Notes: a model not told the origin generated them from the letters alone. 64,000 bases of DNA from Parcubacteria group bacterium Gr01-1014_31 (GCA_007376135.1 VMFR01000001.1:142554-206553); one strand, 5' to 3'. Positions 7,564 to 26,773 are shown, counted from the stretch's first letter. Program-made: numbers and translations.

Positions 7564-9690
7564 TCAACGCCCAAAACAATCAATTAAATCTTCGGTGCCG
7601 TCGTACCCGTTAATCGGCGGTGGAAGTGGTACTCCTCGCGGGTCGTAAAGAGACCGGATAGCGAACACGACATCGGCGATGTTGACACCACCATCGTCAT
7701 TCGTATCAGCAGCGTCGAGACAGGGAGGTCGAGCATCTGACAAGAAAAGGAATCTCAAGGTGAAGAGATAATCCGAACCGTCGAAATTGGAGTCGCCGTC
7801 GCTATCACCCCGAGTGAAGGGACCATTGCCTGCATAATAGTTGTTCATTATCGCGCGCAACTCCCCGGGGCGTGTTCGTGCAAAATCCTCGATACCCGAT
7901 GTTGAGACTCGCACGAAACCGTTCGCGTCAGACTCTTCGCGTATTTTCGTTTTCAGATTCTCAACCGCGAATATCACCCTTTCCGGTGCGAACGTCGTCG
8001 CAAGATGTTGTTCGAAAGCTGACATGAATCGGGAGCGAAACTCGTTGTTCTTGCTGAGATCAGTCCAAAAATCGAACTGCTCGAGAATCGAAATTGTATT
8101 CCACTCTCGAGCTCGTTCCTTATAGAAGCCCCAGTCGGAATCAAAAAGAACCCAGCGCCACTTACCGTCGGGGCGACCTCTCCAGATAGCAATGTTGTGC
8201 CTAAGCCAATCAATTCGATTGAGATATACATTCGTAATAACGTAATCCAGATAACTGTCCAGATCTATCCTGCTGGTTACATAGTTGTAATATTCCTCTT
8301 GCGACAAATCGTGCGTCGCGGCATAGTTGAGCAAAGTACGGTATTCTGCGTCGTCGCCATGTCGGACCTGCAGTTCATAATTTGACCACTCGAGCAAATC
8401 AATGTCTTCTAGGTTAAGATCATAGTGTGCTGCCAAAAAATGTTCATTCATCTTCTCGCGCAACCAATACGCACTAGTATTTATTGTCCCGTTAACGAGA
8501 TAGGCGCGGACTAGGAGATACGCCTGTGAATCAAAATCCATATTTGACGTCAGTTCGCGCGCGAGAGCATCCCGCAGGGGAAAATATATCGGCGTTTCCG
8601 ACCCGTAACGCAACAGCAACCCCTCGTATGAGGTGAACGGCTGGTCCGGAAAAACCTGATATAAAATTTCACCACTCCCATACCGCCTCCGTGCATATAG
8701 AGCGAGCGACGGGTGGTCGATATTGTGTCCATGCACCTCAACTCCGACATCTTGAGAAATAACATGGTTGCCATTAGGCAAGAAATAGTCGAGATGCGCT
8801 GGCAGCTCTTGGTACGGGGTTTGTGCATAGGACAAGGCAATCACCCCAGTACCGGTTTTTTCACGATCCAGAATGTAGGTAAATGTTTCAACCGGACTCG
8901 CAATCAGATTTGGTGCATATGTTCTCGCACGAACCATGACTGTTCCCCCAAGCTCCATCGGATTTGTGTACCCAGTCGACTGTCTGGTGGGTGTAGTGCC
9001 ATTGGTCGTGATGAAAATCGAGGCACCCTGGGTAGTGCTCATCAGAGTCAGCCTCTGTGGGCTTGGATAGAAACCACTAGGTATTGATGGCCCTGGCTTC
9101 CCTGCAACGCCATCGTACGCGGTCGAAATATTAGCGCCCCCAGGGGTTGGTACATCAAAAAAGCGCAAGGCGACCCAGCCATCAGGTTGACGGCCATAGC
9201 TTATGTCGTCTATTAGCTGCGGCACCTGAACCTCGTCAATCATCTCACGTTGCGGGGAAAATAACGAAATAGATTCGCCGTCGGCGTCAATACGAAAATT
9301 TGCGTGCAAGGCACCCGTACTTAGGCCGGTGCCGTCGGCGAATACGATTGCATACCCACGAGCCGGGATCTCAACCGACGGAAACGGCCATCTTGTTCGG
9401 CCCGAATCATCTGACAGGGAATATCCTCCTAGACCGACCGGAAACTGGTTTTGATTGTAAATTTCAATCCAATCGCTGCGATTATTTTCGTCGTCAAGCA
9501 AGCCATTCGCATTTCCCGAGACGACCTCATTAATACGCAACGGCAAAACCTCTGCGGGTCCGAGTGCAATTCGAACCGATACGTACACGATGCTCCCGGA
9601 GACTATTCCGGCCATTACGAACGTTCTCGCGAGTCGCTGGAAAGTGCGAATCTTGACCGCTGCAAGTTGTCTTTCTCCGTGTACTGCCAT
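7564..9690 (-). CDS. CotH-family kinase-like protein with N-terminal lamin-tail domain, CHB_HEX_C-like beta-sandwich and C-terminal dockerin repeat
   Basis: CotH core (YLVNGTINTSAYWLREKM...NVYLNRIDWLRHNIAIWRG...WRWVLFDSDWGFY). LTD motif (NEVVSGNANGLLDDENNRSDWIEIYN). Dockerin-like Ca-binding repeat DADTNDDGGVNIADVVFAI near the C-terminus. The gene is about 45-50% GC against about 65% for its flanks. Confidence 0.75.
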   Translation of the reverse strand: MAVHGERQLAAVKIRTFQRLARTFVMAGIVSGSIVYVSVRIALGPAEVLPLRINEVVSGNANGLLDDENNRSDWIEIYNQNQFPVGLGGYSLSDDSGRTRWPFPSVEIPARGYAIVFADGTGLSTGALHANFRIDADGESISLFSPQREMIDEVQVPQLIDDISYGRQPDGWVALRFFDVPTPGGANISTAYDGVAGKPGPSIPSGFYPSPQRLTLMSTTQGASIFITTNGTTPTRQSTGYTNPMELGGTVMVRARTYAPNLIASPVETFTYILDREKTGTGVIALSYAQTPYQELPAHLDYFLPNGNHVISQDVGVEVHGHNIDHPSLALYARRRYGSGEILYQVFPDQPFTSYEGLLLRYGSETPIYFPLRDALARELTSNMDFDSQAYLLVRAYLVNGTINTSAYWLREKMNEHFLAAHYDLNLEDIDLLEWSNYELQVRHGDDAEYRTLLNYAATHDLSQEEYYNYVTSRIDLDSYLDYVITNVYLNRIDWLRHNIAIWRGRPDGKWRWVLFDSDWGFYKERAREWNTISILEQFDFWTDLSKNNEFRSRFMSAFEQHLATTFAPERVIFAVENLKTKIREESDANGFVRVSTSGIEDFARTRPGELRAIMNNYYAGNGPFTRGDSDGDSNFDGSDYLFTLRFLFLSDARPPCLDAADTNDDGGVNIADVVFAIRSLYDPRGVPLPPPINGYDGTEDLIDCFGR

Positions 9691-20823: not shown

Positions 20824-22173
20824 TTATTGAGTAGTCGCCCGGCCAACGCCGTAATACGTGAATCCTGCGCCCTGTGCCGCCGCGCGATCGATAATATTGC
20901 GTCCATCGAAAATGATCGGTGTGGCAACGGCTTTCCGTAGCCGCGCGAGATCCATGGTTGCGAATTCGTCCCATTCGGTGCATACCACCAGCGCCTCGGC
21001 GCCGTCCGCCGCCGCATACACGTCCGCACAGTACCGTACGTTCGGCAATACGCGCTTGGCCTTGCTCGTTGCCTGCGGATCGTACGCCGTCACGATCGCG
21101 CCGGATTTCCCGAGCGCAGCCATCAAGCGAATGGCGGGAGCATTCCGGATGTCGTCGGTATTCGCCTTGAAAGCGATGCCAAGGATCGCGATCCGTTTCC
21201 CATCAAGCACCCAGAGCTCGCGCTCAATGCGCTGCAAAAACCGCTGATAGGCGTGATCGTTGATGCGCTCCACCGCCGTGATAAGCGAAGCGTCGGCGCC
21301 CAATGTTTCCAGAGTATGCCGGAACGCCGCGATATCTTTCGGAAAACAACTGCCGCCGAATCCGATGCCCGGGCGCAGGAACTCGCGGCCGATTCGGCGG
21401 TCCAAACCGATGCCGTGCAGCACCTCATGGGCGTCGGCGCCGCCGGCTTCGCAGGCCTCCGCCATCAGGTTCGCGAACGAGATCTTGGTTGCCAGCAATG
21501 AATTGGCGCCGTGCTTGATGAGTTCGGCGCTGCGGATGGATACCTCGCACAGTTCCGCCGAAGTCCGCGACAGGATCGGGGCATAGACCCGACGCATCAG
21601 CGTGCGCGCACGGTCCGTGGAGGCGCCGACGACGATCCTCTCGGGATTCAGCGTGTCCTGGACCGCGGAGCCCTCGCGGAGGAATTCGGGGTTGGAAACC
21701 ACGTCGAATTCCTTTGCTCTGGGGTTGTAGCGGCGAATGGTATCGGCCACCTTCTCCGCCGTACGGACCGGCACCGTGCTTTTGTCGACAATGACCCGGT
21801 AATCCGCGGGTAGGGCGCGGGCGATCTCTTTTGCCACCTGCTCCACGTAGCGGAGGTCAGCCTGGCCATCGGCTTTGGGCGGCGTGTTCACGCAAATAAA
21901 AATAGCCTCGCTCTCGCGCACGGCCTCATCGATACGGTCGGTGAAACGCAGGGTGCCTGCCGCCAGATTGCGTTGCATCATCGCTTCCAGACCCGGCTCA
22001 AAAATCGTCGGGGTCCCGCGGCGCAGGAGCGCCAATTTTTCGGGATCGTTGTCCACGCAAATGACGCGATGGCCCAGCTCGCCCAAGCAGACGCCGGTCG
22101 TCAATCCAACGTAACCGGCGCCAATGATACCGACGGTAACGGGTTGCGGCGTGGAAGTGGTCATGGGGCGCAT
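20824..22173 (-). CDS. ugd: UDP-glucose 6-dehydrogenase
   Basis: N-terminal Rossmann GIIGAGYVGL and the catalytic GGSCFPKD motif. Confidence 0.85.
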   Translation of the reverse strand: MRPMTTSTPQPVTVGIIGAGYVGLTTGVCLGELGHRVICVDNDPEKLALLRRGTPTIFEPGLEAMMQRNLAAGTLRFTDRIDEAVRESEAIFICVNTPPKADGQADLRYVEQVAKEIARALPADYRVIVDKSTVPVRTAEKVADTIRRYNPRAKEFDVVSNPEFLREGSAVQDTLNPERIVVGASTDRARTLMRRVYAPILSRTSAELCEVSIRSAELIKHGANSLLATKISFANLMAEACEAGGADAHEVLHGIGLDRRIGREFLRPGIGFGGSCFPKDIAAFRHTLETLGADASLITAVERINDHAYQRFLQRIERELWVLDGKRIAILGIAFKANTDDIRNAPAIRLMAALGKSGAIVTAYDPQATSKAKRVLPNVRYCADVYAAADGAEALVVCTEWDEFATMDLARLRKAVATPIIFDGRNIIDRAAAQGAGFTYYGVGRATTQ

Positions 22174-22208
22174 TGTACGTTCGACGTTGCCATAGTGTCA
22201 AACCGACA

Positions 22209-24047
22209 TCAGCTGAAGCGGATCACGCGGCCAGGCGCCAGCGGCTGCGGTCCGCTGGTCGGCGGGGTGGGAGGTTGCGGACGGACCGGCACAGCCGGGG
22301 ACGGCTCGGTCGAAAGTACGCGCTTGGGCGACTCTGGGGTGGTTAACGGCCGCTCGTTGGCTTCCGGCTTGCGCCGGCGCCCGGAGAACGAAACGGGTTC
22401 GGCGCGCAGCGCTTCCGCCAAGCTGATCTCCTGGATGGGCTGCGGCACCACTTCCTGAGCCTCGCCGCTCTGGAGCGCGTTTTCGCGCTGAAGTTTGAAA
22501 CATTTCTTGCAATACACTGGGCGGATGCCGTCGGGTTTGAAACCGACCTCGACCGGAGTGCCGCATTCATAGCAATCCACCATGAAGCGCGGTTTTACCG
22601 GCACGGCGGGCGCAGCCGCAGGTTCGGTATTTACCCGCGGACGCGCCGTTGTCCGTTCGACGGGCGCCTCCGCCGAAACCGGAGTTCTGACGGCGCGGAT
22701 GACCGGGACAGCCGGGGCAGCCTCGACCCTCTCTCCCTCCTCGTCGTCCGCGACCATGCCGCTCCAACGCGCGATCTTGTCCTCGACGATCTCGCGCGGT
22801 TTACCGTACCGTTCTCGAGTGGCATGGATGATCTTATCGACGTTCCCGGCCTCCTTGGCCCAGTGTTCCAGTGGCGGCAAGGTGGTCGCGGAGAACGGAT
22901 TAGACGCGACCCCGTCGATCATGAGTTTCAGGTAAATGTCGTACTTAGCGAGGTTGACCAAATCCTCCTCATCGAAATAGGGAGCAAATTCCGTGGCCAT
23001 GAACTCCGCATCACCGGCGCCAACGCGGAACGACATGATCGTGCCGACGTTACCGAACACCGCCGCCTGGATCTCTTCCTCGACCTGCTCGACGTACTGG
23101 TGCGCAATGATGAGATTTAACCGGTATTTGCGCGCTTCGGACAAAATGTTCGCAAAACTTTCCGTAGCGAAATTTTGGAATTCGTCGACGTAGAGATAAA
23201 AATCCTTGCGTTCGCGTTCGGGAATGTCGATGCGGCTCATCGCCGCCAGCTGGATCTTGGTGATCATCATCGCCCCCATCAAAGCGGAGGCGTCTTCGCC
23301 CAGGCGGCCCTTGGAAAGGTTCATGATGAGGATCTTCTGGTTATCCATCACCTCGCGGATGTCAAAACTCGTGCGTACCTGCCCGACAATGTTGCGAATG
23401 AGTGCGGTCGACAAGAACTGCCCGACCTTGTTCTGAATGGGGGCAATGGCCTCGGCCTGGAAACGGTCAGGGTATTTAGAATACTCGTCGACCCAGAATG
23501 AGCGCACCACCGGGTCCTTGATCTTGGCGATGACCTTCTTGCGGTAATTCTTGTCTACCAGAATGCGCAGCACGCCCAGCAGCGTGCTGCCGGGGTAATC
23601 AAGGAGCGCCAGGATCGCGTTGCGCAGCACGTACTCGAGCCGCGGCCCCCAGGAGTCGGCCCACAATTTTTTGAACACACCAACCAGGCCAGAGGCGGTA
23701 AGATGTTTATGCTGTTCATTCGCTGACTCCATCACGTTCAGCGAGATGGGAAAATCCATGTCAGCGGGGTTGAAGTAAACGACATCGTTGATGCGGCTGG
23801 TCGGTATGTATTTGATGATCTTCTCCGCAAAATCACCGTGCGGATCCACCACTGCGACACCCTCCCCATTGATGATGTCCTGCACCACCATGTTCTCCAA
23901 TACCGTTGATTTCCCCATGCCGGTCTTTCCGATCAGGTACATATGCCGCCGGCGGTCGTCTTTCTTGATACCAAACTTCAACTTCTGGTTACGGAAGTTG
24001 GTCATCCCGAAGTACACGATACGCTGTTCAGATGGAAGGGGGTTCAT
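22209..24047 (-). CDS. soluble P-loop ATPase of the TraD/VirD4/HerA (FtsK-like) superfamily with a C-terminal zinc ribbon
   Basis: Walker A LIGKTGMGKST, Walker B FYLYVDEFQNF, then NLIIAHQYVEQ; no TM helices. A P/A/V-rich linker precedes a C-terminal CxxC...YCxxC motif (DCYECGTPVEVGFKPDGIRPVYCKKCF). The start overlaps the upstream gene's stop as ATGA. Confidence 0.6.
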   Translation of the reverse strand: MNPLPSEQRIVYFGMTNFRNQKLKFGIKKDDRRRHMYLIGKTGMGKSTVLENMVVQDIINGEGVAVVDPHGDFAEKIIKYIPTSRINDVVYFNPADMDFPISLNVMESANEQHKHLTASGLVGVFKKLWADSWGPRLEYVLRNAILALLDYPGSTLLGVLRILVDKNYRKKVIAKIKDPVVRSFWVDEYSKYPDRFQAEAIAPIQNKVGQFLSTALIRNIVGQVRTSFDIREVMDNQKILIMNLSKGRLGEDASALMGAMMITKIQLAAMSRIDIPERERKDFYLYVDEFQNFATESFANILSEARKYRLNLIIAHQYVEQVEEEIQAAVFGNVGTIMSFRVGAGDAEFMATEFAPYFDEEDLVNLAKYDIYLKLMIDGVASNPFSATTLPPLEHWAKEAGNVDKIIHATRERYGKPREIVEDKIARWSGMVADDEEGERVEAAPAVPVIRAVRTPVSAEAPVERTTARPRVNTEPAAAPAVPVKPRFMVDCYECGTPVEVGFKPDGIRPVYCKKCFKLQRENALQSGEAQEVVPQPIQEISLAEALRAEPVSFSGRRRKPEANERPLTTPESPKRVLSTEPSPAVPVRPQPPTPPTSGPQPLAPGRVIRFS

Positions 24048-25408
24048 ACCGTAGGCCCGGAAGGCGGGCCGGAGGGGGGTTCAAATGGCGCCACCGGTAA
24101 GCCTATCGGCGGTTCCGCACGCTTGGCCTCAGTGCGCTTGACCTGGGGAGTTTTGACGGTTATGGCTGGAAAGTGCCAAATGGTCGCGAGCTCCTCGGTA
24201 TTGAGGATCTCACCGTAGTAGCCTGGGGCATACTGACGAGCGCGTAGGCGATACCACCGCATCAGTTTATTCTTGCGCGCGTTTACCCGTTGGGTCTTAA
24301 ATAACCCATAGGCCTTGGTCATTTTTTTCTTATTAGGTTTGAAGCCGTTCATCTCGAGCGTGTTGAACTGCTTGATGGCCCCAAACAGGGCACTTCCCCG
24401 GGTGGCCTTACTGAAAGCGTATGTGCGGGCAATGTAGATCAGCCTGATTCGAGTATGAAAACCGATTTTACCTATCTTGTGCTCGATCGATTCTACGACG
24501 GAACGCTTTCCTGGTGGAAGATGAAGCATTTGGCTCGCCGGGATCAAGGTTTTTACCTTGCCGTCCGTTTGGCCACCTGTGCTTAACCCGCTAGCGACGG
24601 TACCGATGAGCTCCATGGGGAGGGTCAATAGTTTTTCCCACCACCGTTTGGGTGCTTCGTACCGAGCACCGATCAACTTGGCAACCAACGCCTGACCCGG
24701 ATGGCCCCAGTCGTTATTGGCTGGGGTAATGACAATTTGCAACCACGCCTGCTCATCAGGGTTAAGCTTGGCAAAAATTTCCAAAATGCTGGCCATGGGG
24801 TCCTTGAACTCACCGGAAACGGAGTCTTCGAACTCGCGATAGGTTCTGATCGGGTAGTACTGCTTATTTGTGAGTTTCAGTTCAGCCCCCCACATGTTGT
24901 AGCGGTCATTGGGAAACTTTATCCCACGCCAGCGCATCGCATAATCCTCAACCTCGGTAATCTCAGCTTCCGGGTATTGGGCGTAGACGGCCGCTTCGAC
25001 CAAATCGCGGAATTGTTCTGGCACGTGCATAAGGAATTGCACATACCCGCCGAAACTGACGATTTCCAACCCGATGGATTCTTCCATCTCACCAGCGATC
25101 CATTTATCCTCACGCTTTGGGTCGTTGTGCATGCCAGAAAAATGAGAAAAAATCTGCTCAACCGCCCGTGGTGTTTGCTCGGTGCTGCGAGGCACGTCGA
25201 ATGCCAACACGACATATTTCCTTTTGGCATCGTAGATGCCGCGCCGCCACTCGAGCCACATTGCCGCCCCGATGAACCCGGCCCAGGGCAACAGAAAAAC
25301 CCAGCCCCCATGGCCGAGCACCCACAGTGCCGCCGAGACTGGGTTTTCCGCCGCTGCGGCGGCAAACCCGGCAAAATCGATCGTGAAATTCATAGCCGGT
25401 GGCGGCAC
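24044..25408 (-). CDS. hypothetical membrane-anchored protein (one N-terminal TM, large soluble domain), partner of the ATPase
   Basis: 454 aa with TM helix WVLGHGGWVFLLPWAGFIGAAMWL and no recognisable family. The 4-nt overlap with the ATPase suggests translational coupling. Confidence 0.5.
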   Translation of the reverse strand: MPPPAMNFTIDFAGFAAAAAENPVSAALWVLGHGGWVFLLPWAGFIGAAMWLEWRRGIYDAKRKYVVLAFDVPRSTEQTPRAVEQIFSHFSGMHNDPKREDKWIAGEMEESIGLEIVSFGGYVQFLMHVPEQFRDLVEAAVYAQYPEAEITEVEDYAMRWRGIKFPNDRYNMWGAELKLTNKQYYPIRTYREFEDSVSGEFKDPMASILEIFAKLNPDEQAWLQIVITPANNDWGHPGQALVAKLIGARYEAPKRWWEKLLTLPMELIGTVASGLSTGGQTDGKVKTLIPASQMLHLPPGKRSVVESIEHKIGKIGFHTRIRLIYIARTYAFSKATRGSALFGAIKQFNTLEMNGFKPNKKKMTKAYGLFKTQRVNARKNKLMRWYRLRARQYAPGYYGEILNTEELATIWHFPAITVKTPQVKRTEAKRAEPPIGLPVAPFEPPSGPPSGPTV

Positions 25409-25464
25409 GCACGCCCACCCATGTTCGGCGGCGCGCCGACTTTTGCGTTTGTTTTTTATTACGG

Positions 25465-26628
25465 TTAGGCCTTGCCCGTTTTGAGCTGGTAGCGGTCGCC
25501 AACTTTGATGAAACGATCTTTGTTCGTCAATGCCAGATAAATCGTGCTTTTGCGCACCAAGCGACGCTTGCCGACCTCGCCGACGACCTCGTCGCGCGTC
25601 AGCGGGCGCTGGGCATCAGTGAGTACTTGGGCGACCACGTCGCTGACCGTGCCGGGCTGGTACCCCCACTCTTTGAGGGCGTAGATACCGCGGCCGACCA
25701 ATACGTACCGCTCATCCAGGATCAGCTCGTTGTGAATGGTCGCGGGGTACGCGACCTTATGGTCAAATTTCGCCTGATTGATCTGGTTGGTGATCTCGGT
25801 GAAATGCAGCGGCTTACCGCCCTGCTTGAGAATCAAGTAAATCTTATCACCCATTCGCCGCGGCCGCACGGTCGCCCAATGCGCAAGTCCCCATTCTCCC
25901 AGAAGGTTTTGCTCAATGCGGCGGCTGATGGTGAGGTAGGAATGCAAGATCCTATCCAGCGCCTCTTCCTCATCGTCGACGGCAACGGCTCCGACCGGCA
26001 AGAACCGCTGCCGGTTCTCCTTGAAAAAATCATGCTGCTTGAAAGAGGAGATCAACTCTTCCAGGCGGAAAACGCGCTGCTGCTCTTCAATAATGCGAGC
26101 GAATACCTCCAGGACTTGATGCACGAACTCGACATCAAGCAAGCGAAGCTTCCAGCCCGGGTACAAATGGTCGCTGGACCGGACGCGGTCGACGTGGTCG
26201 GTCAGCAGCTGGGACAAAACAAACCCCGTGGACTGCTGGTGCTGGCTGCCGTTCCCCAAATGCGACAAAAGTTCGTCGTACAGCTGCGAACCCTCGATGA
26301 TGCCTCCGTACTCGTGTAAAAGCCTGGTCACCGTATGCTGGAGGATGTCCAGTTTCTCTTTTGCCTGTGCCAGCGTGCGGATCTTGCGAACCGCAGCGCT
26401 CTGGATCTGACGGATACGCTCCCGGGTGATCTGAAAATTTTTGCCGATCTCTTCCAGTGTTTGAACCGGGGTGCCATCCAAACCGAACCGGCGCGAAACG
26501 ACTTCGCGCTCTTTGGGGCTCAACTCTTTGAGCAGCTCGGAAATGATCTCAGAAGGGTTGAAAAGGCTGGCCTCCTGAATATTCCGACTCTCGATGATTT
26601 GGTCCAGAATTGACTTTGGCGGGTTCAT
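25465..26628 (-). CDS. DNA-binding protein with N-terminal sigma-70 region-4 HTH and C-terminal HARE-HTH-like domain; not a bona fide sigma factor
   Basis: Residues about 25-85 (LSPKEREVVSRRFGLDGTPVQTLEEIGKNFQITRERIRQIQSAAVRKIR) match sigma-70 region 4. No region 2 is present. The C-terminal HWATVRPRRMGDKIYLILKQGGKPLHFTEITNQI...GIYALKEWGY resembles HARE-HTH. Confidence 0.55.
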   Translation of the reverse strand: MNPPKSILDQIIESRNIQEASLFNPSEIISELLKELSPKEREVVSRRFGLDGTPVQTLEEIGKNFQITRERIRQIQSAAVRKIRTLAQAKEKLDILQHTVTRLLHEYGGIIEGSQLYDELLSHLGNGSQHQQSTGFVLSQLLTDHVDRVRSSDHLYPGWKLRLLDVEFVHQVLEVFARIIEEQQRVFRLEELISSFKQHDFFKENRQRFLPVGAVAVDDEEEALDRILHSYLTISRRIEQNLLGEWGLAHWATVRPRRMGDKIYLILKQGGKPLHFTEITNQINQAKFDHKVAYPATIHNELILDERYVLVGRGIYALKEWGYQPGTVSDVVAQVLTDAQRPLTRDEVVGEVGKRRLVRKSTIYLALTNKDRFIKVGDRYQLKTGKA

Positions 26629-26682
26629 ACTAAAAATTGCTCTATCAAGCGAAAAATACTACTATAATGATTTTATGGTGTA

Positions 26683-26712
26683 AATATAGCATAAAGTTGA
26701 TTATTAGTCAAG
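26683..26712 (-). promoter_or_regulatory. strong sigma70 promoter TTGACT-18-TATATT for the sigma4/HARE-HTH operon
   Basis: Read on the minus strand: -35 TTGACT (26712-26707), -10 TATATT (26688-26683). Lies in a roughly 25% GC intergenic region; no terminator before the downstream membrane-protein and ATPase genes. Confidence 0.6.
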
Positions 26713-26725
26713 AAATCAGTTTAAA

Positions 26726-26757
26726 AAATCTTCCGGAATTTTTTTCCGGAAGATTTT
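26726..26757 (-). terminator. bidirectional rho-independent terminator after secF
   Basis: Perfect palindrome AAATCTTCCGG-AATTTTTTT-CCGGAAGATTT with T-runs on both sides. Confidence 0.6.
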
Positions 26758-26773
26758 TATTCAATGTTTGAAT

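Follow-up and report, generated by a model that had tools for sequence, protein, structure and literature searches.

The question raised by the locus described here is what is done by three linked genes of a bacterium of the candidate phyla radiation (CPR): A, encoding a protein with a sigma-70 region 4 and a HARE-HTH domain; B, encoding a protein with one hydrophobic anchor; and C, encoding an ATPase related to those of type IV secretion systems (T4SS). The genes lie in a stretch of 64,000 nt of Parcubacteria group bacterium Gr01-1014_31 (GCA_007376135.1 VMFR01000001.1:142554-206553), the whole of which is referred to as the window. The sequence-only reading, a note made on this DNA without database searches, had reported the linked trio at this place and had proposed a minimal DNA-translocation, defence or secretion system, possibly acquired. 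The three genes are real, their open reading frames (ORFs) being confirmed on the minus strand:

25465-26628, minus strand: gene A, 387 aa, from the ORF call
24044-25393, minus strand: gene B, 449 aa, from the ATG at 25393, the start used by homologues
22209-24047, minus strand: gene C, 612 aa, from the ORF call

The frame of B is open as far as a GTG at 25408 (24044-25408). Together, B and C probably constitute a split, membrane-anchored motor ATPase of the VirB4/VirD4 superfamily serving translocation across the envelope. It is considered highly likely that C is held at the membrane by B, which completes it to a motor of VirB4/VirD4 type, that a conserved promoter drives both together with A, and that translation of B and C is coupled in this genome. 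Patescibacteria account for much of bacterial diversity and rely on host cells. A T4SS of Patescibacteria was the first to be shown essential for growth (PMC10633639), and thousands of orphan coupling-protein genes without an assigned role are reported in passages of PMC12102498. One class of these orphans would supply one half of an ATPase that is split and VirB4-like in plan, the missing half being the uncharacterised family DUF8128. Since the pair is usually predicted to be co-transcribed with a sigma-region-4/HARE-HTH protein, a testable three-protein system results.

The protein that defines the family relationship is C, in which the following features are found:

22758-24047, minus strand: RecA-like ATPase with a helical insertion (residues 1-430)
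23907-23930, minus strand: Walker A motif, GKTGMGKS
23181-23201, minus strand: Walker B motif, FYLYVDE
22500-22574, minus strand: zinc ribbon CxxC-x17-CxxC (residues 492-516)
22212-22235, minus strand: conserved C-terminal peptide PGxV(V/I)(K/R)F

C matches the Pfam models TrwB_AAD_bind, DUF87, TraG-D_C and zf_Tbcl_2. Its database name is 'type IV secretion system DNA-binding domain-containing protein', and a hypothetical protein recorded for 'Parcubacteria group bacterium Gr01-1014_31' matches it at 100% identity. The best match among PDB sequences is TrwB. Structurally, C is closest to T4SS ATPases and not to FtsK or HerA; VirB4 scores slightly above TrwB. In the model, the helical insertion occupies residues 111-221, between the Walker motifs; VirB4 C-terminal domains likewise carry a helical bundle at that position. 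No hydrophobic segment of C reaches 1.6 on the Kyte-Doolittle scale averaged over 19 residues (KD19), in agreement with the earlier description of a cytoplasmic ATPase without transmembrane (TM) helices; the anchor is on B. The tail past residue 430 is disordered, rich in proline, alanine and valine, and holds the zinc ribbon, which is present in 54 of 76 C orthologues. A tie between the ribbon and the presence of A was considered and rejected on the counts (with A, 32 with the ribbon and 18 without; without A, 22 and 4). The literature on the CxxC-x17-CxxC pattern yielded only the zinc-binding small proteins of Methanosarcina, in which a ribbon domain of this type was shown to bind zinc (PMC12704099).

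The partner protein, B, contains two regions:

25244-25354, minus strand: N-terminal hydrophobic anchor (about residues 14-50), one stretch with basic residues after it
24179-25222, minus strand: alpha/beta domain (about residues 58-405), folded like the N-terminal domain of VirB4

In structure comparison this fold is specific to VirB4. B is thus a VirB4-N-terminal-domain-like protein: the earlier call of a single-TM protein holds for the one N-terminal hydrophobic stretch, not for a generic single-TM protein. It follows that B and C together would amount to a T4SS ATPase in its two-domain form. The hydrophobic segment has a KD19 of at least 1.6 in 19 of 26 family members. Because the basic stretch RRGIYDAKRK comes after the hydrophobic helix, the positive-inside rule would place the rest of B in the cytoplasm. 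According to precomputed annotation, the family of B would be Pfam DUF8128 (PF26449), which is assigned to all 120 homologues listed, including one of 98% identity; genes beside C orthologues are likewise annotated as PF26449. B itself gave no match in the Pfam models scanned (a set without DUF8128), in NCBIfam, in PADLOC or, as a profile, in PDB sequences; structure comparison and PHROGs were the only informative sources for it. No publication naming DUF8128 was found in a literature search. Conserved features of B are the motif 'EELAxxWHFP' and a proline-rich tail. In homologues, a variable proline-rich linker leads to a conserved terminal PPxNLP(I/V); the tail of the window protein (about residues 425-449, 24044-24120) is shorter and divergent (EPPSGPPSGPTV). 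The terminal PPxNLP(I/V) of B and the terminal PGxVVKF of C suggest, as peptide patterns, short docking motifs for a partner.

The two-domain plan also occurs in single polypeptides. In PHROG phrog_5156 (824 positions), B matches positions 25-359 and C positions 402-806. In gp156 of Bacillus phage G (825 aa), the B-like half is recovered by hhalign (97.5%), hmmsearch (E 7e-18) and Foldseek (E 9e-19), and the C-like half is 29% identical to C (E 1e-44). The gp156 gene adjoins that of gp155, a VirB4/TraG-P-loop-like ATPase (L085 4294-8436; loci are cited by L number). Proteins similar to gp156 are encoded by phages JL and Slash. C-like ATPases are also found in SPO1 (gp27.4), CP-51, JL, Shanette, D6E and Microcystis phage Mwe-JY31, in several cases with a B-like domain fused to the ATPase; some of these phage records are named 'MsbA-like', which looks like misannotation. 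A metagenome-assembled genome (MAG) of the CPR (L095, 4292-8285) carries, directly downstream of B-C, a fused paralogue of 740 aa that combines a B-like N-terminal domain without an anchor and an ATPase 45% identical to C. This paralogue is followed by two cysteine-rich proteins (67 aa and >426 aa) with many CxxC motifs and no Pfam match, which may be zinc-ribbon partners related to the ribbon of C. An Embleya plasmid contains a complete monoderm-type T4SS cluster (TrbL-like, PrgI, VirB4, Replic_Relax relaxase, NlpC/P60). Its coupling protein of 812 aa is recognised by the C profile (E 1.5e-73) and, in two weak collinear stretches, by the B profile, and this actinobacterial conjugative coupling protein is probably a B-like plus C-like fusion. 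The C profile fits the fused proteins far better than it fits TrsE (VirB4, E 2e-6) or TrsK (VirD4, E 0.01) of plasmid pGO1. The fusions and these scores therefore set B+C, gp156 and the actinobacterial coupling protein apart as a branch of their own in the VirB4/VirD4 superfamily, in which a VirB4-like N-terminal domain precedes the ATPase. No similarity to B was detectable in the N-terminal regions of ATPases from Rhodococcus, Bradyrhizobium and Haladaptatus; a C relative on a Sulfitobacter plasmid (39% identity) is a lone ATPase among transposases.

Linkage of the genes was studied in loci found when one genome of each GTDB species was scanned for the pattern of the B alignment; B was found in at least 561 species, and the best 80 loci of these were compared by tblastn. 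The taxonomic breadth of B was judged on these 80 loci and on 150 representatives. Against 1.84 billion representatives, the B profile retrieved 3,229 clusters (50% identity) at E<=1e-3. A, B and C have thousands of homologues each, which, where named, belong to Patescibacteria, Parcubacteria or Buchananbacteria. Homologues of the three genes do co-localise, a point on which the sequence-only reading had made its proposal depend. C lies directly downstream of B in 76 of the 80 loci (76 of about 77 that can be evaluated). Among the four exceptions, the contig stops right behind B in L043 and L077, L050 shows 452 nt of apparently non-coding DNA after B and then a contig end, and the fourth is a real separation. 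A lies directly upstream of B in 51 of the 80 loci (also given as 51 of 78), and an upstream secF was recognised in 58. B comes straight after secF in loci whose titles name Uhr- or Magasanikbacteria and in other loci that lack A. The order secD-secF-(A)-B-C ... mnmA-alaS spans Buchanan-, Kerfeld-, Komeili-, Uhr-, Magasanik- and Falkowbacteria. Clustering of neighbours among the 80 loci returned only secD/F, A, mnmA-like and alaS-like genes as recurrent. B and C were merged into one cluster by this procedure; neither a fused ORF nor a direct edge was found, and the merger was treated as a single-linkage artefact. Three loci at greater distance also contain the A-B-C trio, two of them with different surroundings: in L093, A-B-C has other neighbours and is followed by rpiB and rpe; in L094, A overlaps B by 4 nt and efp is on the opposite strand. 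In one marine MAG, A and C are adjacent although B is on another contig among unrelated genes. This recurrence in other contexts indicates that the linkage is not only frozen synteny.

The upstream member of the trio, A, has two domains, both correctly named in the sequence-only reading, as were the ATPase domains and zinc ribbon of C:

26377-26535, minus strand: sigma-70 region 4 (residues 32-84; Pfam Sigma70_r4, E 5e-15)
25666-25839, minus strand: HARE-HTH domain (residues 264-321; Pfam, E 3e-7)

A conserved middle region and a further C-terminal helix-turn-helix-like region are also present. Region 4 (TLEEIGKNFQITRERIRQIQ) is near in sequence to that of primary sigma factors, the best PDB matches being region 4 of RpoS, SigA and RpoD (E ~1e-12 to 5e-13). 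Sigma region 2 or 3 was not found: Pfam shows Sigma70_r4 only, and all NCBIfam sigma models score far under their cut-offs, with matches confined to residues 3-96. A is therefore not a sigma factor; its database name is 'sigma factor-like helix-turn-helix DNA-binding protein'. The C-terminal half is strongly conserved and contains the HARE-HTH, which is the fold of the RNA polymerase delta N-terminal domain; the NCBIfam model RNAP_delt_lowGC gives 41.7 bits for a cut-off of 42. From these domains, A is most likely an accessory protein that binds DNA or RNA polymerase.

A is preceded by the only strongly AT-rich spacer of the window. This spacer (26629-26773) has 24.8% GC, close to the 25% given earlier, and is the sole part of the 64 kb with 100-nt windows below 30% GC. 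Two signals lie in it:

26724..26758, minus strand: intrinsic terminator hairpin directly after secF, with a perfect 15-bp stem and a 5-nt loop
26683..26711, minus strand: sigma-70-type promoter of the module, TTGACT-17-TATATT, with an extended -10 (TG-n-TATATT)

The terminator has an A-run before it and a U-run after it, hence the bidirectional shape that had been described; its folding energy is -21.4 kcal/mol (z -6.3, equalled by 0/200 shuffles). The promoter had been proposed with the same hexamers, which stand, and with a spacer of 18, which is in fact 17. In 44 of 48 related loci (loci of ~28-58% GC), A is preceded by a site of the form TTGACn-17-TATAnT that scores >=10/12, usually with the extended -10 'TATG(A/C)TATAnT'; an equal score is reached by 14% of shuffles and by 6 of 54 regions upstream of secD. 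In nine Buchananbacteria-type loci (L001, L004, L006, L008, L009, L013, L014, L015, L079), the -35 hexamer is half of an inverted repeat, GTCAA-N2-4-TTGAC, which presents two facing -35-like half-sites; the window copy (26696-26711) is without this repeat and has TTGA-N8-TCAA instead (TTGACTAATAATCAAC). Since A has a region 4.2 of the RpoD type, binding of A to its own promoter is conceivable. Downstream of A, the spacer to B is 56 nt up to the GTG and 71 nt up to the ATG of B. As had been noted for the 56-nt gap, it contains no terminator, and its folding is at the level of shuffled sequence (z -0.26). The B/C junction is equally as reported: the stop codon TGA of B and the start codon ATG of C share the overlap ATGA, read directly in the sequence.

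Taken together, these features would fit the following mechanism. A, B and C would be expressed from one strong, conserved sigma-70-type promoter, the ATGA overlap coupling translation of B and C here. B would be held by its N-terminal anchor and present to the cytoplasm its domain with the VirB4 N-terminal fold; C would supply the RecA-like motor with its helical insertion, and its tail, with the zinc ribbon and the terminal peptide, may offer docking sites for cargo or partners. B and C would assemble into a complex, presumably of hexameric type. A, which combines an RpoD-like region 4 (a -35/beta-flap-binding module) and a HARE-HTH, may regulate the motor or work with it. Given the family relationship, the most parsimonious role would be that the motor powers or gates the passage of a macromolecule, DNA or protein, through the envelope, either as the coupling ATPase of a monoderm-type T4SS encoded elsewhere or as an exapted stand-alone motor. 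The T4SS cluster of Southlakia is without a recognisable coupling protein (PMC10633639).

Known systems resemble this arrangement only in part. With type IV coupling proteins (VirD4/TrwB/TraD/DotL), C shares the RecA-like domain with Walker A and B of the VirD4/VirB4/FtsK/HerA superfamily. Canonical coupling proteins carry their own N-terminal TM domain and no VirB4-like cytoplasmic domain, whereas C has no TM helix, the anchor being on the separate protein B, and B does have such a domain; the zinc ribbon of C is not a canonical coupling-protein feature. Relaxase or T4SS channel genes are absent from the window and not recurrent within ~10 kb in the 80 loci; coupling-protein genes can lie far from virB4 (passages of PMC12102498). 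In VirB4 ATPases (TrwK of R388; VirB4 of Thermoanaerobacter pseudethanolicus), the two domains form one polypeptide, in contrast to the two polypeptides B and C. In C, the Pfam VirB4 models CagE_TrbE_VirB and AAA_10 are absent, NCBIfam VirB4_plasma reaches 26.5 bits against a cut-off of 590, and the match of the C profile to TrsE is a single short stretch. VirB3-, VirB6-, VirB8- or pilin-like genes are not recurrent within ~10 kb in the 80 loci. A precedent for splitting is given by TrsD-TrsE of the staphylococcal plasmid pGO1 (a T4SS of the mating-pair-formation class MPF-FATA), where a small gene lies directly upstream of the VirB4 ATPase gene and TrsD is described as having remote similarity to the N-terminal part of VirB4 (passages of PMC12102498). 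TrsD has 227 aa, B has 449 aa; TrsD-TrsE sit inside a complete conjugation operon, and no sequence similarity between B and TrsD of pGO1 was detected (hhalign probability <1%). Phage G gp156 and relatives (PHROG 5156; JL, Slash, SPO1 group) show the same order, B-like then C-like, but are fused, phage-encoded, without a detected N-terminal anchor and ~29% identical to C. The earlier statement that no standard layout is matched is thus only half right: B is VirB4-like, which would give B+C the plan of a T4SS ATPase, and fusions exist.

Orphan coupling-protein genes in Patescibacteria are already published: passages of Quinonero-Coronel et al. 2025 (PMC12102498) count 5,713 VirD4-like genes in 2,918 genomes (about two per genome), 148 of them near virB4, and suggest exaptation. 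C is very probably one of these genes. Those passages contain no DUF8128 partner, split VirB4-like plan, sigma4/HARE-HTH neighbour or conserved promoter. The points not found described are the VirB4-N-terminal-domain fold of DUF8128, the split architecture with its fused relatives, the sigma4/HARE-HTH association and the conserved promoter. DUF8128 thereby gains a structural assignment, and CPR genes are linked to large Bacillus phage ATPases and actinobacterial conjugative coupling proteins. This is of interest to specialists of T4SS and of the CPR; it is not a new kind of system.

Base composition bears on the claim that the module was acquired. Total GC and GC at third codon positions (GC3) are as follows:

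25465-26628, minus strand: gene A, total GC 56.0%, GC3 0.73
24044-25393, minus strand: gene B, total GC 54.4%, GC3 0.64
22209-24047, minus strand: gene C, total GC 58.4%, GC3 0.75
neighbour genes: total GC 58-63%, GC3 0.72-0.78
whole 64-kb window: total GC 60.0%

The module is lower in total GC, as had been stated, by less than was claimed: 54.4-58.4%, with neighbours at 58-63% and the window at 60.0%, not 65%. The GC3 of A and C is in the neighbour range and B alone is lower; the deficit sits in codon positions 1 and 2 and therefore reflects amino-acid composition. A-B-C is an inherited core locus, not an acquired island, and the B-C pair is a vertically inherited core function of the CPR lineage, given host-like GC3, conserved synteny, and the breadth of B (at least 561 species and 3,229 clusters at 50% identity). 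The lowest coding GC of the window (50.5%, GC3 0.52) is that of a CotH/LTD surface-protein gene (7564-9690, minus strand, 708 aa), whose product combines CotH kinase, Lamin-tail and CHB_HEX_C/Fn3-associated domains; as a gene of atypical composition, it is a stronger candidate than the A-B-C module.

Several other explanations have to be weighed against a split motor for envelope translocation. A recently acquired remnant of a mobile element (a decayed conjugative element or prophage) is extremely unlikely. The few points of total GC by which the module falls under its neighbours, the AT-rich spacer upstream of A and the occurrence of C relatives on plasmids and in Bacillus phages would fit it; the GC3 of A and C and the codon-position pattern do not, and the same gene order is kept in species with loci from 28% to 63% GC. 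No integrase, relaxase, repeats or flanking tRNA were seen around the module in the window, a scan of IMG/VR with the B alignment gave no relatives, and identity to C does not exceed 39% in plasmid and phage relatives, against 47-94% in CPR orthologues. The suggestion of acquisition is accordingly abandoned. Cooperation of B-C with SecDF in Sec-dependent protein export is suggested by secD-secF directly upstream in 58 of the 80 loci, but is highly improbable: a strong terminator and a separate promoter stand between secF and A, the trio also occurs without SecDF (L002, L093, L094), and synteny with mnmA and alaS is similarly conserved, so that the secDF order looks like plain conserved gene order; to our knowledge, there is no precedent for such a partnership. 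Among the three functions first proposed, defence is the least likely. An anti-phage module built on a HerA/DptH/MADS-type ATPase would account for the PADLOC match to mad8 (E 2e-16 over nearly the full length), for weak matches to HerA and DndH, for similarity to DptH, and for the CHAT/TPR genes that adjoin stand-alone C-like ATPases on a Bradyrhizobium plasmid. It is nevertheless very unlikely. The housekeeping synteny of the best 80 loci of at least 561 species is fixed, unlike patchy defence islands; no nuclease, Sir2, methylase or other effector partner is present in the window or recurrent in the 80 loci; B has no PADLOC match, neither A nor B has a system-specific match, and GC3 is host-like.

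A T4SS-independent DNA motor, exapted at the membrane, for example for DNA uptake or nucleotide scavenging, chromosome resolution or recombination, is possible, though on the unlikely side; the zinc ribbon, and possibly A, would then bind nucleic acid. No T4SS genes lie nearby, and passages of PMC12102498 report that t4cp genes are far from virB4 and possibly exapted, and that T4SS loci of ABY1 co-localise with comF, recG and radA. The pair is kept as core in genomes that are reduced and, according to PMC12102498, unable to make nucleotides. Against such a motor, the zinc-ribbon family is known for zinc binding only (PMC12704099) and is missing from a part of the orthologues, the nearest structural relatives are T4SS ATPases rather than FtsK or HerA, and the fold of B is specific to VirB4. 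Both a remote T4SS coupling ATPase and an exapted stand-alone DNA motor are compatible with the locus. It is distinctly unlikely that A-B-C is a self-contained, lineage-wide CPR machine derived from T4SS ATPases and working outside any T4SS, with the cargo or activity of a membrane-docked VirB4/VirD4-like motor tied to the transcription apparatus via A; if true, this could mean export or import of nucleic acid at the host-epibiont interface, or transcription coupled to envelope translocation. The reading of B and C as a split motor for envelope translocation also has points against it. A T4SS channel gene (VirB3, VirB6, VirB8, pilin), a relaxase or a second VirB4-like ATPase is neither present in the window nor recurrent in the 80 loci, so the link to a T4SS can only be inferred. 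The hydrophobic segment of the window B peaks at a KD19 of 1.43, and the zinc ribbon is absent from 22 of the 76 C orthologues. A is not beside B-C in about a third of species and is therefore not obligatory, and a single class in which gene order is conserved contributes much of the A-B-C adjacency. For Southlakia epibionticum, the T4SS genes are reported to be essential but the t4cp homologue, which may or may not be an orthologue of C, is reported not to be (passages of PMC12102498).

The module is flanked upstream by secD and secF and downstream by ugd and an amino-acid permease gene, the latter two in the same orientation, as had been noted. Its 3′ limit is marked by a site in the 35-nt gap after C:

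22172..22201, minus strand: promoter-like site of ugd, TTGACA-18-TACAAT

The -10 hexamer of this site overlaps the first in-frame ATG of ugd (22173), and a second ATG, at 22164, lies ~7 nt past it; the position of this second ATG would suit an ugd mRNA that has no leader and begins at Met4 of the listed ORF.

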